From positions 15,562,001-15,626,000 of the forward strand of contig NC_092345.1 of assembly GCF_963676685.1 (NCBI RefSeq): a stretch of DNA of 64,000 nucleotides. Reading direction: 5' to 3'. The stretch's first letter is position 1. Every line of letters begins with the position of its first letter. The translations under genes were made by a program, and so were the position numbers. Under the pieces are notes generated by a model, which saw nothing but the letters and a program-made list of their open reading frames with translations, was not told the origin of the DNA and made no database searches. The DNA comes from Mytilus edulis (lineage: Eukaryota). Positions 5,156-38,813 of the stretch are shown here, in pieces.

Positions 5156-5887
5156 GTAAGAAACTCAAATTACAGGATAAAAGTTAACAAAAATATAGGG
5201 AACTGCATTTTTTTAACTACTGAAATATAAGTTTATAAGTGGAAACAGTACATCAAGATTGCAACACATGGGATAAATGTGCTTTAATTAAGAAATAAGC
5301 CAATTAATCACAAGTAGCGAACGAAAATTGATGACTATTTAGGTTTTAGCATGAAGTAATAAGGAGAATTAACTATTGTAAGAAATATAAGGCAATTCTT
5401 AAGTTTAGGTTTCTTAAATATAAGCAAAGGAAACATTTGGATTTGAAACAAGGAGATAGTAACCTACAAAAAAGTAGAATAACAAAAATATTAGAACTCA
5501 GAGGAAAATTCTAAACGGAAAGTCCCTAAGCAAATGGCAAAATAAAAGCTCAAACACATCAAACGAATGGATATCATCTCTCTTATTCCTGACTTAGTAC
5601 ATTGGTACAGGCATTATTTTTTTTTAAAGTAACACAAATACGGTCTCGAAATAACAGTCATTTGTCAACACTTTTTGATAAACTAAAAAATAATTTAATT
5701 TCTTGTACTTTATGTCATCATGCTCATATATTTTATAATTTGAAAGTAGCAATTTAAGAATATAAGACAAAAACAATAATATTATTTAGACTATTTTTAA
5801 CATTGTTCAGACATTAAAATGAGATCGCTCAACTATAACAATGCCACTTCTTTTTTCTTAAATCTCAAATGTTTCATTTCATTTCAG

Positions 5888-15744: not shown

Positions 15745-16022
15745 AAACACAAAACTCCAATCCTTGTATCTATGATGAGTTGTTTGTACTCAATTTAAAA
15801 TGTCTTACAATTGTTTTAGCAGAGTATAACAAAAATACCGAACTCCAAGGCAATAAAGACTGACCAAATCAAACGCGTTCAATATACATGTATTTGTATA
15901 TTACACACAGTCGGTACGTTCAATATACATGTATTTGTATATTACACACAGTCGGTACGATATACATGTATTTGTATATTACACACAGTCGGTACGAATG
16001 GTGCGGCTATACATGTATTTTA

Positions 16023-17114
16023 GATAAAATACATGCTTTCAATGGTCCTTACAATTCTGTTGACAGTTATGATTTTTCTACTCTGTACACTACACTTCCA
16101 CACAATCTTATAAAGAAAAAGTTTTTGTATTTGATAAAATGGTCTTTCGAAAAATCTCATTGTAATTTTATTTGCTGTAACTCGTTTAAGGCCTTTTTCT
16201 GTAACGAAAAGGGAAAGTATGCTAGATACACTTACTGGAAATGTGAGGATATGATTGAAGCTTTAAACTTTCTGCTTGATAACATTTATGTACGTTTCGG
16301 CGATAAAGTGTATCGTCAGGTAGTAGGTATTCCTATGGGCACCAACTGTGCCCCTTTAATAGCAGATTTATTTCTATATTGCTATGAATCTCAGTTTATG
16401 ACCAAACTCAGTAAAGACCCATCATTGTTACATTTGGTTGATACATTCAAAAATACCTACCGTTATCTGGATGATATTTTTTCGTTGAATAATCCAGACT
16501 TCTCTAAATATACTTCAGAAATTTACCCAAACGAACTTACTTTAACTAAATCTAACATAAACAGCAGCAGTTGTCCTTTTCTAGATTTAGACATTTCAAT
16601 TTCAAACGGGAAACTTCACACTAAAATTTACGACAAAAGAGACGATTTTTCATTTCCTATTGTTAATTTTCCTTTTTTAGATGGCGATGTGCCTTTGGCT
16701 CCATCATACGGTGTTTATATATCGCAACTCGTTCGGTTTGCCCGTGTGTGTTCTGATGTCATAGATTTTAACGAACGTAATCAATGCATCACTGGTAAAT
16801 TGTTGTGTCAGGGATTTCGATACCATAAATTACTTAAAACTTTTACTAAATTCTTTCATAGATACAAAGATTTGATTAGTAAATTTGGCTATACCTGTAG
16901 AAAGCTTATTAAAAATGGTATTTCACATCCTAAATTTTATGGTAATATTGTACTTAAAGCGAGGAAATCACTATGTGATCCTTGTAAACTCATCGAACCT
17001 TTAAACAAACTTATAAGTAAGGGTTATCGTACCAATATTGTAATAAGATCTCTGAATATAGTTCACATTGGCACTAATATTGATATTGTCATTAGCAAAT
17101 TAAAACATAAGTAA
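16023..17114 (+). CDS. Penelope-like reverse transcriptase, C-terminal 363 aa, uninterrupted
   Basis: Motifs YDFSTLYTTLPH, YRQVVGIPMGTNCAPLIADLFL, YRYLDD, CPFLDL, thumb IYDKRDDFSFPIVNFPFL..SYGVYISQLVRFAR; TAA stop. Confidence 0.93.
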   Translation, partial: DKIHAFNGPYNSVDSYDFSTLYTTLPHNLIKKKFLYLIKWSFEKSHCNFICCNSFKAFFCNEKGKYARYTYWKCEDMIEALNFLLDNIYVRFGDKVYRQVVGIPMGTNCAPLIADLFLYCYESQFMTKLSKDPSLLHLVDTFKNTYRYLDDIFSLNNPDFSKYTSEIYPNELTLTKSNINSSSCPFLDLDISISNGKLHTKIYDKRDDFSFPIVNFPFLDGDVPLAPSYGVYISQLVRFARVCSDVIDFNERNQCITGKLLCQGFRYHKLLKTFTKFFHRYKDLISKFGYTCRKLIKNGISHPKFYGNIVLKARKSLCDPCKLIEPLNKLISKGYRTNIVIRSLNIVHIGTNIDIVISKLKHK

Positions 17115-17248
17115 ATTTCATTATCTTTTGAGGCGAGATGTATAGAGACACAGACACGTTAACTTTTATTTCTATAGAAGTCGCTCTTCACTATACTACT
17201 ACCTGTCGATACATTTATTTTTGGCATTGCACAAGTCATGTCTTCTTT

Positions 17249-17306
17249 GACTATTAATGACGTTAAAATACTAAATCCCTGTGATGTGTTTTAGTCGATT
17301 TTAGTC
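17249..17306 (+). promoter_or_regulatory. Eukaryotic SECIS element (form 2) in the retroelement 3' UTR
   Basis: Helix I gacta/tagtc; core ATGAc (17257) / cGAt (17296); 10-bp helix II gttaaaatac/gtgttttagt; apical AAA 17273-17275; ministem atc/gat. Confidence 0.85.
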
Positions 17307-17789
17307 TCTGATGCATGATTTTTTATTATTAATTGGTTTTGGCTTTTAACTAGCTGTCAGTAACTGCGAGTACTCTCAAATCGTATTTTCTTGTTAATTC
17401 GACCTGTTGATACTGTTTATAATGCTTTTTTGTCATTTTTTATTTATACGGATCTTGTCTGTACACCAGCTTTGATTATTTGTAATATCTTCACTTATTC
17501 TTACAACATTTGTATAAACTTCAAGATTATAAAAAAAACCGGTTTTTTTTCTAAAGTGAACATTGATTGGTTAAATATTTCTCAGTCATGTCCTGTTTTT
17601 GAATTTGTTTGTTAGCTTTTTGGTCATGAATGTTTGTCTCTAATATTTAATTAACTGTGCATTTGTATTCAGATATCGCAGATCAAATTTATTCGTTCAT
17701 TGTTTAATCATACGTTTTTTGATTGAGTTAAGTCTGCCAATTGATATTTTATCGTATGTTTTTCTTTGTTGTGATGTTATGCTATTGTT

Positions 17790-17873
17790 TCAGAAAAAGG
17801 GAGAAGGTTTGGATCCATTAAAACGTTTAATCCCGCTGCAAATGTTTGCACCTGTCCTAAGTCAGGAATCTGA
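17790..17873 (+). ncRNA. Twister-like self-cleaving ribozyme, P5-type permutation, intact core
   Basis: P5 tcaga/tctga; P2 TCCC/GGGA; GA-AGG pairing with loop TCCT; TAA at 17828-17830; GC pairing with loop aaGT; P3 tgcaa/ttgca; P4 cctg/cagg. Confidence 0.8.
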
Positions 17874-20382
17874 TGTACAGTAGTTGTCGTTTGTTTATGT
17901 AATATATACGTGTTTCTCGTTTCTCGTTTTGTTTATATAGATTAGACCGTTGGTGTTCCCGTTTGAATGGTTTTACACTAGTAATTTTGGGGCCCTTTAT
18001 AGCTTGTTGTTCGGTGTGAGCCAAGGCTCCGTGTTGAAGGCCGTACTTTAACCTATAATGGTTTACTTTTTAAATTGTTATTTGTATGGAGAGTTGTCTC
18101 ATTGGCACTCACACCACATCTTCCTATATCTATTTGTATATTACACACAGTCGGTACGTTCAATATACATGTATTTGTATATTACACACAGTCGGTACGA
18201 TATACATGTATTTGTATATTACACACAGTCGGTACGAATGGTGCGGCTATACATGTATTTGTATATTACACACAGTCGGTACGTTCAATATACATGTATT
18301 TGTATATTACACACAGTCGGTACGATATACATGTATTTGTATATTACACACAGTCGGTACGTTCAATATACATGTATTTGTATATTACACACAGTCGGTA
18401 CGATATACATGTATTTGTATATTACACACAGTCGGTACGAATGGTGCGGCTATACATGTATTTGTATATTACACACAGTCGGTACGATATACATGAATTT
18501 GTATATTACACACAGTCGGTACGAATGGTGCGGCTATACATGTATTTGTATATTACACACAGTCGGTACGTTCAATATACATGTATTTGTATATTACACA
18601 CAGTTGGTACGAATGGTGCGGCTATACATGTATTTGTATATTACACACAGTCGGTACGTTCAATATACATGTATTTGTATATTACACACAGTCGGTACGA
18701 ATGGTGCGGCTATACATGTATTTGTATATTACACACAGTCGGTACGTTCAATATACATGTATTTGAATATTACACACAGTCGGTACGAATGGTGCGGCTA
18801 TACATGTATTTGTATATTACACACAGTCGGTACGAATGGTGCGGCTATACAAGTATAAAACAGAAAATTATAACAATAAAAAAAACAAGAACATCATATG
18901 CAAAACATTTCAATCGAAATAAGTTTTTGGCAAATATAAAAAAGAAGATGTGGTATGATTGCCAATGAGACAACAAGAGACAAAAATTACACAGAAATTA
19001 AGAATGTAGCATTGCCTATAAGTTGAGATGAGTCTATATGGTTCTTCAATTTGGGCATGTTCTTTAAAATGTTATTACAAGCAACCTCAGAGAAATTTAA
19101 TTACCTTTTAAAGCTCAATAGATATTTCATTATGTCCTTGTTTATTATATACTATGCCGACTCTAAATAAAATTAAATTACTATTACCATTTATCATATT
19201 TACGTATTTATATAACCCTAGATTTCAAACGTTAAAGTTTGAGCGTTACTGATGAAGGTGCACCCAGGAGATTTTCATTTTAAATTATATCAAACTTGCG
19301 ATTTTTTTTTATTATTAATTAAATAAATGACATGAGAAATCGAAATAAACAAGGACATTCCTGCATTTTTCTTCCTAATTCATTTGTTATTATCGGGAAG
19401 TATCTGGGTTAAATGATAATATTAGCCGATAAAACAAAAGACGATTTTTGTCCTATAACAATATCTCGGCAGGAAAATCTCTCAATCCTTTGACATTGAT
19501 TTTATTTATCCATGAAAGTGAAAAATGGATGAAAAGTTAGTTTTATCTACAACTGTGTGAACATTGGATTGTTAATGATGATAAAACAGGAAACCTACGA
19601 CACAACACGAAAATGCAACGACCATGATGGGATACTTGCGCTTTTCAAAATTCCATTTGGCCCTTGGTCAAACCCAGCAATGAATTTGATAGACAAAGAC
19701 AAATTATTTTAAAATTTCATCTTCATTCTTAAATTATTATTAGTTTAAAATGACTGATGCGAAATATTTGTTGACACAAGTCTTTTCGTAGTTGCTCCTA
19801 CATCGTTTTTATTGTTATCTGTCACATTTGCCTGATCCGGGGTGATCGACATCGATTTACCATATCCAGAGATCAAAATATGTTCATCTTTTCCTTGGTA
19901 GAATATAGATTTGATGAGTTAGTGGATAAATTGATGGAACCCATTTAAAACCTACCCTTTTGTTGAGCTGTCACGGGATTATAACAGACACTATACTTTG
20001 ATGAAAATTAGGTAGTCATTTTTCATCATAGCATATCGATTGAATATAAGAATAGGACATTCTTTTTACAGATCCTGGTCGTCTTATCAAATGTAATCAT
20101 CAAAATGGCTTCATATGAAATCATTTTCATGATACCGTCTACATATTAGTATATCATTAAAAATGTTCTCGGAGTTTCTTTTTTCTTTCCTTCTTTGAGT
20201 TTTTTTTTCTAGAATTGTTAAAATCTTTATTTAAATCTGCTACAAAAAAAATAGTGCGAGCTGTATTTTTTTTTTCTTTTTCACGCAAGCTCAAGTCAAA
20301 ATAGAGAAAACGACATGTAATACACTATATCAAACCATTATCCTGTTTTCCCTGTGTGTTTTGGGGCACACTTAACATTGAG

Positions 20383-23770: not shown

Positions 23771-25756
23771 TACTGTATAAACATTAGGAGATGTGATATG
23801 ATTTCTATTGAGACACAATCCGACAGTGTTTAGTTGACGTATAGGCGTAAGCGAATCCATATTATATAGTTCATATAAAAGAAAGGATACGAGGTATCCA
23901 TCCATAACACAAAACCAGTACATGCACAGCAAAAACACAAAAAGGAAAAAGAACAGCACTTGTGTTGCATTCCAAGGTCACAGTGAGGCCTTTAACTTTA
24001 ACAACATTTCTCATCTCAGTGAAAGTTTAAGGCCATCTCTAGCACCGGATTGAGTTGAATTATTCGCAAAATCATTATTTAAGTAAACAATTATGTTTTG
24101 ATAACGCTTCATTGAAAGGCGATACTATATTTCGTTCATAAAAAAAATTACCTCTTGCAATGTTCATGCCTTTCATTACTTTGATTAAATCTTCTTTTTG
24201 GACAAGCTTTTACTTTTTGACGACGAAAATGTTATTGTTCATTTTCTTCAAGTTACCCTAAAAAAACAAAGGTTCGTTACAATATTTGTTTTAATGAAAA
24301 TCAACTACCACTATTTTTTTTATTTTTTTGGCAGAATGATGTCTGCTAGACGAGCACATAAAGAATACAATTTGAACTTAATGATAAACTTTGCACGTGT
24401 GATAGCTTTTTCAACAAAAAACATAATTGTCCTAATAACTGAGCTAATTGAACTATTTATTTAAGACATTTCTGTTTTTTAAGTCTCCCGTATTTGTTCT
24501 TATGCAAATGGCCACTTCTAATCGGCTATAATACAATCAATTAAATACTTTTTCTGCTCTGTAAAAATCGAGAGTGAAATAATGTTTTGTTTTCTGTGAA
24601 AGAACATAATTTGTCAAGTCGACATGTTCAAGTGGATTGTCTTAAAGGATCAATTTAAATAGTGAAGCTAGAGAGCCGTTATAAAAACATATGGAAATGA
24701 CAAAAGAGATATCTCACGCCAAAACAGTCCTCGCGTGATTTTACGAGAGGCGGGTTTCCCTTGTGTATTGGCTTGTCAGAGTAATGAGATGTAAGAAATT
24801 GTAAAAATCAAAAGAAATAAATCGTCGTACAATGATTTACAGTTTGGTTCATCTAGAGGCTTCATGTTATTTGGAATCAATCTTTAATATGTTTTTACTT
24901 CTTGATGTAATTACTGAAAATAATATGCAATAATAACGTGCAATGCTAGAATTATGTATTATCTAATATGAAAATGCTTCTTTGATATTTTCACTGCATA
25001 CATTTCCAATAAATCTGTGCACATTGAAACGTTAACTTTGTCAATCATGTTTAATAACAAAAGGCTTTATATCGCAGATATAATAATAGATTATTACGCC
25101 AATTCGTCCCTTTGTTTGCAATGTAAGATGTTTGGCGTACATTTCCACTTTTGCAGTGCAGTTTGACTTAAACTGTTTTTATGCCAGCTAATAAAATTCG
25201 TGAATGGTGACATTGAAAATATCATAATTACCAAAGGGTTGACACATCTGCTGACAATCAGTTGCCTCTCAACTGTAATACCTGTCTATAGTAGCTCGGT
25301 ACGTTAGTCCGGCTAGTATGGAAATACGCATATCAGAGAATACAACGAACATGTAACACATTACTAGTATACATTTGGTAAATTACAAATGATCCCCCTT
25401 ATACGGATAGTTCATGCAAAGATCTCATAACTGGCTAGTTTTATTTTTCCTTGGTTGTAAGTTCGGACCGAGGTGTGTTTGATATTGATCTTAAGGGATT
25501 GCCATTTTCCCTGATCAAGGTTGAACTTGGCGGTTGTCTCCGATTGCCATTTTCCCTGCTCAAGGTTCAACTTGGAGGTTCTTTCCGAGTACTCAGGCTT
25601 CCTCCGCAAATAAAAAAAACATTGAAACACTATAGCAACCAAACAAACAAAAAAATCTCTTCTGATATTTCCACGTCTCGTTTTTTTCGTATGCCAATGC
25701 GTAGGCCATTCACTCTTCACTGACTGAAGTTTATTTGTTGGAATGGATATACTCTC

Positions 25757-25832
25757 ACGGGGAGGGTTGAACGCTCACAAACATGTTTAACCCCGCCACA
25801 TTCATAATGTGCCTGTCCCAAGTCAGGAGCCT
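25757..25832 (+). ncRNA. Twister-like ribozyme copy (core intact, P5 5' strand missing) heading a retroelement tail running to ~26090
   Basis: cggg-GA-GGG-t-tgaacgctca-ca-aacatgtt-TAA-CCCC-GC-cacat/atgtg-cctg-TCCC-AAGT-cagg. Confidence 0.75.
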
Positions 25833-26564
25833 GTAGTTCAGGGGTTAACGTCGGTTCATATCTGTCATATTTGTTTTTCGTTCGTTAACTGTTATAAATT
25901 AGGCCGTTAGTTTTCTCTATTGAATTGATTCATATTTTTTCATGTTGGAGCCTTTTATAACCAACCACACGGTATGGACTTTTCTCATTGTTGAAGGTCG
26001 TACGGTTGCGTATAATTGCTAACATCCACTTCATTTGAACTTTGGTGGATAGCTGTATCATTGGCAACCATACCACACCTCCTTAATTATATATGAGGCA
26101 TTTGTATCATGTACTAACTTTATTTAGCATTTAGTCCATCATTTAATGAATTTTGAAAAAGAGTTTTATAATTATTTAGAAAAATATACGCAAGAGTAGT
26201 ACCTTCATTTACAGCTGAGTATAGAAGCCTCTTGAACAAGGTTAGGTTTTAAGGACTCACAACAGACGAACACAACAGGTTTTGGAGTTTGTTGATTCTT
26301 GTCTTTGGGTTGTTTTGTGGTCTTGGAGTTTTCCTGTTTTTGGATGAGCGTAACTGTCATAAATTCATATCTTGGACGTTATTGATGAAACTTTCACAAT
26401 GTTCCTCTAATTTTAAATGACTTAGTGTAACCATCGGAAAAAACATTTTTTAAACTTTTGACATTGCTGGTATTAAATGCAGCATATTATATTACTATTT
26501 TTACTATTCAGAAAAATCAACCATGCTAAGGAAGTTTATCATAACGTATGTAATTATGTAACTG

Positions 26565-36147: not shown

Positions 36148-36222
36148 CAGTGATAATGAATGCCATACTAATTTCCAAATTATACACAAGAAACCAAAAT
36201 TAAATAATACAAGACTAACAAA

Positions 36223-36318
36223 GGCTAGAGGCTCCTGACTTGGGACAGGCGCATAAATGCGACGGGGTTAAACATGTTTCTGAGATCTCACCCCCCCCCC
36301 CCCCCTATACCTCTAGCC
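36223..36318 (-). ncRNA. Twister-like ribozyme copy with a 9-bp P5
   Basis: Minus strand: ggctagagg-tata-(G)15-tgagatctca-g-aaacatgtt-TAA-CCCC-GT-cgcat/atgcg-cctg-TCCC-AAGT-cagg-ag-cctctagcc. The GA-GGG segment is obscured by a G run. Confidence 0.7.
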
Positions 36319-38813
36319 TAAGTTTCAGTTCAAGAGAAGTCTGGGTCTGATGTCAGAAGATGCATATACGGACCCTGGATTTAAATCAGTTATGATCTGG
36401 CGGTTTTTGTCTTTTTTTCAAAATACATATTTTCGATTGTGACTATCTTTAGTTCCGAATCTTTCTATCATTCTAATTAATTTAGTTTAAATGAAAATAA
36501 GGAACTTAGAATTAAACACTGTTGAAGAGAAACTACATATTCGGGTTAAATTCACCTCAGTTTGTTAATTCAAGTTTGACATCTAACATCTTAATCCGTA
36601 ATCCACATTTACGTGACAACCTTAAATTGTTTATTGTATTTTATCAATCGAATATCCTCACACAGGAAACTGAAACGAATATGTTATTTGTAATGGTATT
36701 TATCAAAACTAAAATGATTGAAAATATATTTGTAGGATATGAATTTGCCTAATAAGCGAATAATTATAATATATAGATTTCAACATCTTCAATAGAAAGA
36801 TTACTGATAAGATGTCCAAAATATAAGTACATGTATATTGCGATTAGTGCTATATAGTATGTCAATGATATTGAATGCCCGCTGAGTGTAAAACATATTT
36901 CAGCTTAAATCTTTATTTCTGTAAACCCCATTTATTTACTTTCATAGCCTCATATATGTACATGTACATGGTATTTGAAACAGAAACAATATACCGTCGT
37001 ATATTACAAAAATTGAGAATGGAAATGGGGAATATATAAAAAAGACAAAAACCCGACTATAGAGCAGACCGTGCAAGGGCTGTATAGCCAGTCAAGGTCG
37101 TTAAAAACTTCCATTTGTTGTATAGAGCAGACAAAAGAGGAAGGCCTATATTACGGGTCTGCAATGTAGAGAGAAACTCATGCGTATACATACATGCATT
37201 ATTGTATGCACATGCTTGGACTTATAAATGCATATATATATACTTGTACAAGTCCCAGATTGTGTTATAAATTATTTCTTATAAACATACAGGAACATTT
37301 TAATGCTAATTCAAACGCACAGGTGTCAATATCTGCAAGTCTACCGGTTTTATAAGTTGTCATTTAAAAAAGTGAAATTATAGTGTATTTTAACAACAAA
37401 AAATTATGAATGAATTTATTTAAAAAAATTCCAATCCCTTAAAAACGAGGCATCATCATATATACTTATAAAACAGCTCAAATTCTATTTTGTTAACTTG
37501 GAGTAGAAAACTTACAATATATTTTATCTCATTGAAACATGAACGTGGACCCCATTGAGAACACCTTGGATTGAAAGATTGCAAATCTACTGACCAATGG
37601 AATGCTTTGGATTTAGAACGCGGACCTCAACGAGAACACCTACATCGATAACACACTATAATCTGTAGACCGTCAGACAGATAGCAAGAATTCCAGATTT
37701 CGTTTTCTTTTATTTTAAGTAAGGTCACAATATGGAAGAATATATGCTGCAAATATACAATTCCTTGATGCTGCTGTGCATGCCTGATTGACAAAGATTT
37801 AATCAAATTCATAAAAATATGTAATAACAATTTAAGTGTTTCTGTATTAAGATTGGGATTTAAAATATGCATTTTATGTACTTGTTTTGGTTTGAATTTG
37901 TTTATTCAAATCTCGAGAGAACAGCTGATGTTAGCTGATCTCTTAAGCCGTAACAGTAGTGGTAGATATTCACAGATTTTTTTTATATAAAAACACACTA
38001 GTACAATTACATATGACAATAATAATGTGTCTGTTTTATAAACCAGTTTAGTCTTAGTGTGCATAATTATGTCTCCGCTGAATATAATTCAATGTTAGAT
38101 AAACATTAAAAGCTGTATAATTATCAATAAATTCATTTTCAAAATCATTTATTTATTTAGGCTTAATTAAAATATTCATCAAATAACGAATGAATATAAG
38201 AAGATGTGGTATGCTTGTCAATAATTTCATTCACCGTACATGTGGAATACCGTATGGTAGTTTTTTGGTCTAAATAAGAGTACATCTACTACATGTCTTT
38301 GATTTAACAAATGATAAAAGATCTGGCATAAAAACATGATTCTCAATATAATCTAAAAATTGAGGAGAAAGCCAGATTAAGACAGTTATACAATTTAAAG
38401 AATACCAATCTTTAAGTTTTATTACTTAGAGATATACTGTCCCCCTTCTTTTAACCTACACGAAAACTTCACGAGAGCCAATGATTAAATATCCCCCTTG
38501 TTTTCCGTATATATATTAAGTAACTGAAGAAGCAATTCAAATGCCTAAGGATATTCAATTTGTTTCAATATTGCCGAAAACTGAGGCTACTATAATTTTT
38601 ATACTGTTTTTACATGTAGTAGTCTCAGCCGAAAACAATACATAATATTGACAATATAAGCAAGTGTGACATACCAATAAAAAATTTGTTGTTTGGGATT
38701 ATTCATAGTTCACTAGTATTCCTTTCACGGATTTGGCTATACTTTTTGGACCTTTTGGATTATAGCTCTTCGTCTTTTACATTAGCTTTTGATTTCATAT
38801 ATTTTGGCCTCGA

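Follow-up and report, generated by a model that had tools for sequence, protein, structure and literature searches.

A SECIS hairpin in a truncated retroelement of Mytilus edulis points to a Naiad family with five predicted selenocysteines

Introduction

Why should an apparently intact SECIS hairpin lie downstream of a reverse transcriptase (RT) fragment that contains no in-frame TGA? The question is posed by a stretch of Mytilus edulis DNA of 64,000 nt (hereafter the window; AT-rich, with a GC content of about 32%), for which a first-pass annotation offered two answers: either the selenocysteine (Sec) codons belong to the lost 5' part of the open reading frame (ORF), or the subfamily reverted Sec to Cys and kept its SECIS. 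Four Sec-containing Naiads, from two clams and two spiders, have been described, with 3-4 UGA codons and a type I SECIS located 1-21 nt past the stop (Craig et al. 2021, PMC8557442). Here we describe the copy in the window, its full-length relatives and their sibling families, and weigh what these imply for the reading of the UGA codons.

Results

A truncated Naiad copy with a SECIS hairpin

The locus comprises the following features (window coordinates):

15876..16017, no strand: host minisatellite (units 37-47 nt long) forming the left side of the insertion target
16018..18132, + strand: 5'-truncated Naiad Penelope-like element (PLE) of family A, 2,115 bp, sharing 99.4% identity with the 3' half of L033, a full-length copy, and ending at the 3' end that copies have in common
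16020..17114, + strand: retained C-terminal 364 codons (RT core with YLDD, thumb) and TAA stop, no TGA; residues 638-1001 of the 1001-aa protein P0002
17235..17319, + strand: SECIS with outer helix, recognized by folding, Rfam, descriptor and cross-family alignment
18131..18835, no strand: host minisatellite as on the left, forming the right side of the target

Judged by its sequence, the window element is a young, 5'-truncated family-A copy whose 5' cut falls inside the RT and which inserted into a minisatellite. The retained frame is indeed free of TGA, as first described, with 364 element-derived codons (counting from the start at 16018) instead of the 363 initially given; Pfam RVT_1 matches it weakly (E 0.011). 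Having no 5' UTR, start or UGA to act on, the copy is probably a dead by-product. The minisatellite, with units of 37, 41 and 47 nt, is split by the Naiad insertion, and no clear target-site duplication is seen. A small contig (C499, copy L001) is identical to the window copy and has the same upstream flank, probably representing an uncollapsed haplotig; elsewhere in the window, an open frame with a LIM domain (574-942, +; Pfam E 1.7e-18) is probably a host gene exon.

The hairpin starts 135 nt past the TAA (17112-14), in agreement with the approximate spacing claimed before, and its AUGA lies at +142. An outer pairing (17235-41/17313-19) encloses helix I (GACUA/UAGUC, 17249-53/17302-06, 5/5 pairs), a core in which AUGA (17257-60) and GA (17297-98) contribute to the non-Watson-Crick UGAC/CGAU, helix II (17262-71/17286-95, 10/10 pairs, three of these G-U) and an apical AAA (17273-75). 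Of the hallmarks named in the first-pass annotation, the AUGA/GA quartet, the 10-bp helix II, the AAA, helix I and the outer pairing are all borne out by sequence and fold; the ministem is only marginal, being reduced to two pairs in the window copy, whose minimum free energy (MFE) fold has a 14-nt loop. The ministem measures 3-4 bp in an older copy (L086) and in sibling families B and C.

The fold is unusually stable (MFE z = -4.5; equalled by 0/200 shuffles), and SECIS_1 (Rfam RF00031) ranks first among the 21 Rfam matches in 4 kb, with 28.4 bits and E 0.013 (E 0.0033 when rescored on 1 kb), a score below the Rfam gathering score of 35. Scores of 23.5-24.9 bits are obtained for family B and 30.9 for family C, the best value (34.4) belonging to L086. 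A SECIS descriptor matches 0/425 other 300-nt tiles of the window, and its untiled scan of 128 kb returns one weak 8/10 look-alike. The hairpin thus resembles eukaryotic SECIS elements (RF00031) in its AUGA/GA core, 10-bp helix II, apical AAA and helix I, and departs from them in lying below the gathering cut-off, in its extra conserved outer helix and in being carried by a mobile element.

Full-length family A has five in-frame TGA codons at conserved Cys sites

A DNA search of the genome (1.37 Gb, fourteen contigs of 71-126 Mb) gave 6,206 candidates, among which the 40 scored matches all proved 99-100% identical. The full-length main body spans about 4.44 kb (4,441 bp), and in four loci (L033, L034, L035, L042) a truncated copy lies upstream of a full-length body, in a pseudo-LTR (pLTR) layout. 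The full-length ORF encodes P0002 in 1001 codons, with a GIY-YIG endonuclease (EN) at the N terminus and an RT at the C terminus, and its only interruptions are TGA; past its TAA, the SECIS core follows at 142 nt.

These TGA codons occupy positions 52 (second Cys of a CX4CxxC finger), 83 (Cys before GIY-YIG), 94 (first CCHH Cys), 381 (first Cys of CxC) and 519 (DKA+8), so that the Sec codons supposed to lie in the lost 5' part of the element are found there in intact copies. Four of 19 copies, partly picked for length, retain an ATG-started 1001-aa frame whose sole stops are the five TGA; one more shows the same five TGA without the start. Among fetched copies covering each site, TGA is present at codons 52, 83, 94, 381 and 519 in 8/8, 9/9, 9/9, 25/25 and 33/33, respectively. 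The in-frame TGA sought opposite Cys in full-length copies are likewise matched by a near-invariant Cys in 62 homologues (49/49, 48/52, 53/54, 61/62 and 58/61 rows with a letter at the aligned sites). Contigs from two public runs with different organism labels (X1, X9) list no change at the TGA sites that they span, so that assembly errors are not the source of these codons. Among the 33 Cys/Sec positions of P0002, TGA accounts for 5/10 conserved and 0/23 unconserved ones (Fisher p 0.001), a bias that fits selection at ligand sites and equally fits older sites having had longer to convert.

Family A is assigned to Naiad by motifs and homologues

P0002 contains, in this order, a CX4CxxC finger, GIY-YIG with CCHH, a KR-rich block, CxC, GPKY, DKA and the RT; a CX2-5CxxC finger and CCHH in the N-terminal GIY-YIG EN, and a KR-rich block, CxC, GxKF/Y and DKA between EN and RT, are among the Naiad hallmarks (PMC8557442). 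PF01541 and PF00078 are found in homologues that align with 80-90% of its length. On full-length P0002 itself Pfam calls neither GIY-YIG nor RT, so that the identification rests on the motifs and the homologues. Other Naiad hallmarks are found as well, namely 5' truncation and partial tandems (pLTR), with a 4,441-bp body at the upper edge of the 3.4-4.4 kb range. Searched with Rfam up to E 10, 17100-18150 shows no hammerhead ribozyme, nor does the 5' UTR of L033, scanned to E<=3.

UGA codons and SECIS are jointly present or absent across Naiad families of the genome

Protein searches identified four further families, two of them siblings of A (B, 78%, and C, 63% protein identity) and two remote (D and E, 37-38%). 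Family B, whose copies are older and broken, carries TGA at codons 52, 83, 94 and 381, with Cys at 519; the four TGA occur together in one long copy only (L082), that at 381 being also found in L117. In family C, which is young and rich in intact copies, TGA occupies codons 52, 83, 94 and 519, and codon 381 is Cys. Families D and E are intact and have Cys at all five sites. Predicted Sec and Cys are accordingly exchanged site by site between siblings. As to the individual families, B (L079, L082) is an older sister of A whose SECIS has a 4-bp ministem, and C (L091:1359-4367 and about 1,300 other places) is very abundant, with many intact copies arranged in tandem and two or more subfamilies (93% protein identity).

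Once copies with <82% identity to the reference or <250 nt of tail were dropped, the descriptor found a SECIS no more than 300 nt after the stop in 47/50 copies of A (one of these rows being a probable haplotig duplicate of the copy in the window), 8/10 of B and 31/32 of C; over the same 300 nt, it found none in the Cys-only families (D 0/14, E 0/9). Rfam SECIS matches are likewise present in A, B and C and missing from six D loci. Across A, B and C versus D and E, UGA codons and SECIS are thus present or absent together.

In an alignment of 11 SECIS sequences drawn from the three UGA-bearing families, AUGA, GA and AAA are invariant (11/11) and the helices vary. Pairing is formed in 94% of cells, against 33-45% in slid controls, and changes on both sides affect 14/24 pairs overall, with 7/10 in helix II and four of five in helix I; these figures come from only three independent lineages and from a structure drawn from the same sequences. 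RNAalifold recovers the same helices, and in a 500-shuffle test the alignment beat only 14 of 500 shuffles on changed pairs and none on pair types. The hairpin at 17235-17319 is real and has the form of a SECIS, and it belongs to the 3' UTR of a selenoprotein-type Naiad.

In a quick tree, whose sampling covers families A to E and database proteins, A, B and C form a group with the W-bearing proteins (SH-aLRT 95); the sister of this group is a Cys-only protein, and D and E are placed at a great distance. Several database proteins, which supply the W exceptions to Cys in the homologue alignment, show W at 83, 94 and 519, and some at 381; most likely these reflect UGA read as Trp by the gene caller. 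W at 381 in only some relatives implies that the CxC site varies in another lineage too. The Cys-only sister of the Sec clade is represented by P0089/P0094, and the W-bearing proteins fall into two lineages (P0033/P0066 and P0068/P0074/P0078/P0081), one of which is polymorphic at CxC. When homologues were searched with residues 199-636 only, 25 of the top 29 matches began past DKA+8, an observation that is only suggestive.

A twister-like motif in the tail and dispersal of the SECIS

Downstream of the SECIS, the tail contains a further predicted structure:

17790..17880, + strand: twister-ribozyme-like motif in a permuted, P5-open layout, predicted only; its pairings persist in families A, B and C although the letters differ

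Rfam twister-P1 matches this interval at E 10 only. A twister pattern matches 4/6 rows, with all P2, T1, T2 and P4 pairs formed, and compensatory changes affect P2, P3, P5 and one pseudoknot in 4/6 rows. Similar motifs from related repeats lie at 25737-25849 (+) and 36212-36324 (-). Hammerheads are known from PLE pseudo-LTRs, and twister ribozymes occur in P3- and P5-permuted forms (PMC6765202); the part of that source bearing on PLEs mentions no twister in them. The predicted motif could replace the hammerhead that is missing in Naiads.

About 0.9 kb separates the SECIS from the element's 3' end, which is why the truncated window copy retains the hairpin. That truncated copies scatter such elements around the genome, as the first-pass annotation had anticipated, is evident as copy number: the whole 43-nt family-A SECIS core has 199 exact genome matches (control 0), and 761 and 4,926 exact matches are found for a 23-nt 5' arm of B and a 31-nt 5' arm plus loop of C (controls 0), patterns that leave an intact 3' arm unproven. 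In all, the dispersed SECIS-motif matches of A, B and C number about 5,900. TGA at DKA+8 occurs at 1,358 genome sites, mostly of family C among the 100 matches listed. Donation of SECIS elements by truncated copies was proposed in the Discussion of PMC8557442.

Host machinery and expression

Five tRNA-Sec genes score over the cut-off in the genome, four of them clustered at C7:74.8-75.4 Mb and one at C1:49149863. In one RNA-seq run, family A has zero depth over its 5' half and less than about 2 per strand over the remaining ORF and SECIS; family C has coverage over its whole length, with a 3' gradient, in a library that seems to be unstranded. Run X24 likewise looks unstranded, with a depth that tracks the genomic 3' bias, making it uninformative on sense SECIS transcription or host-mRNA capture. 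Public holders of family A (18 in 7 studies, under 3 organism labels) include none listed as RNA, a status that was guessed, and are uninformative on expression. Small RNAs of ~30 nt in run X21 map to the SECIS (L033:5246-5308) and, in opposite orientation, to the tail (5642-5886), which suggests piRNA targeting.

Comparison with published Sec-Naiads

Among the closest known relatives of family A are the clam elements Naiad_Scon (Sinonovacula) and Naiad_Mmer (Mercenaria). It shares with them the permuted EN-RT order, a 3'-UTR SECIS and three UGA sites, namely the Cys that precedes GIY-YIG, the first Cys of CCHH and DKA+8 (PMC8557442); the N-terminal parts of the clam Sec-Naiads in file S4 of the same source resemble family A by eye only. 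It differs from them in having five UGA, not three or four, and a SECIS 135 nt, not 1-21 nt, past the stop. A UGA at the second Zn-finger Cys is also added relative to the clams, the sites described in PMC8557442 placing one there only in spider Naiad_Sdum. Relative to those sites a UGA at the first CxC Cys is new too, with the CxC state of Naiad_Scon and Naiad_Mmer taken from the main text. The ministem of sibling families B and C is type II-like, whereas all four published Sec-Naiad SECIS are given as type I, and the host of family A is of mussel type.

The spider elements Naiad_Sdum and Naiad_Smim share UGA at the Zn-finger Cys, the Cys before GIY-YIG and DKA+8, together with a SECIS, but have a reported independent origin, a reduced IFD and, in the sites described, no UGA at the first CCHH Cys (PMC8557442). 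Naiad_Mgal, Naiad_Mcor, Naiad_Mphi and Naiad_Bpla come from the same host group as family A (PMC8557442); no UGA or SECIS is listed for these four in S1, and they form a separate lineage with a 5-aa Zn-finger insert missing in family A. An N-terminal motif common to Naiad_Mcor and Naiad_Mgal has 25 occurrences in the genome (control 0). Short family-A peptides have 0 matches in the portion of the PMC8557442 supplement compared, where a motif expected to be present also gave 0, making this result uninformative.

In the literature searched, with Repbase, Dfam and subscription journals outside its scope, only PMC8557442 bears on Sec-Naiads; within that scope, a mussel-type host of a Sec-Naiad, five Sec including CxC, Sec/Cys swaps between siblings, the dispersal of some 5,900 SECIS-motif matches and a tail motif of twister type were not found in print. 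Family A is distinguished from published Sec-Naiads by its five predicted Sec, the CxC site, its host group and the scale of its SECIS dispersal.

Discussion

The answer to the question raised by this locus is, very probably, that the UGAs of family A are recoded as selenocysteine, that the hairpin represents a Naiad's 3'-UTR SECIS, and that the window copy lost all five Sec codons by 5' truncation. By analogy with eukaryotic Sec biology, host SBP2, eEFSec and Sec-tRNA would bind the SECIS and decode the five UGAs. All of these precede the RT core, so that mobility would need complete read-through: where it failed, no RT would be made, which would tie the movement of the element to the Sec machinery of its host and, probably, to the supply of selenium. 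Five UGAs served by a single SECIS may give a low yield. Reverse transcription often stops early, which leaves copies longer than about 0.9 kb with a SECIS and no Sec codon, like the one in the window.

Ordinary read-through inserting Cys, Trp or Arg, or RNA editing, might instead carry translation past the UGAs, the hairpin serving another job such as RT/RNP binding. The sub-threshold Rfam SECIS scores would agree with this, as would the nature of the UGA sites, which are probable structural metal ligands and not known redox sites. It is nonetheless a very unlikely account: five leaky stops in series would yield almost no RT, the SECIS-specific AUGA, GA and AAA are kept in three families despite helix change, and the hairpin is missing from the Cys-only families.

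Family A might also be non-autonomous, its UGAs acting as terminators while Cys-only Naiads mobilise it in trans and the SECIS hitch-hikes. Intact Cys-only families do share the genome with family A, and family-A RNA is scarce in the one RNA-seq run; yet several young copies of family A have an ORF that is intact apart from its UGAs, and across the 22-37% protein divergence of A, B and C it stays open, with stops confined to Cys sites, which makes such parasitism very improbable. Reversion of family A from Sec to Cys with a vestigial SECIS, the second answer initially offered, can practically be set aside, since the single-site switches of B (Cys at 519) and C (Cys at 381) and the degraded family-A ministem are outweighed by TGA at each covered site in every fetched family-A copy and by 0/82 genome-wide Cys-codon matches at DKA+8 with family-A letters.

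A broader proposition, built on recoding of the UGAs as selenocysteine, is that a clade of selenium-gated retrotransposons is radiating in mussel genomes, with up to five Sec per protein, single-site Sec/Cys swaps between siblings and a ribozyme of twister type taking the role of the hammerhead. Of its roughly 5,900 dispersed SECIS copies, some would lie in host 3' UTRs and would have given host genes UGA read-through or created new selenoproteins; taken as a whole, we regard this proposition as speculative and rather unlikely.

In summary, selenoprotein-encoding transposons, so far known from four families, now appear to include a young and intact one with five predicted Sec and a previously unlisted UxC site. 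SECIS-based selenoprotein scans and ORF-based transposon annotation are both liable to be misled in mussels. Families A, B and C, set against the Cys-only D and E of the same genome, form a natural series in which UGA and SECIS come and go together, and two proposals of Craig et al., the importance of Sec at zinc-ligand positions and the donation of SECIS elements to host genes, become testable within one genome.
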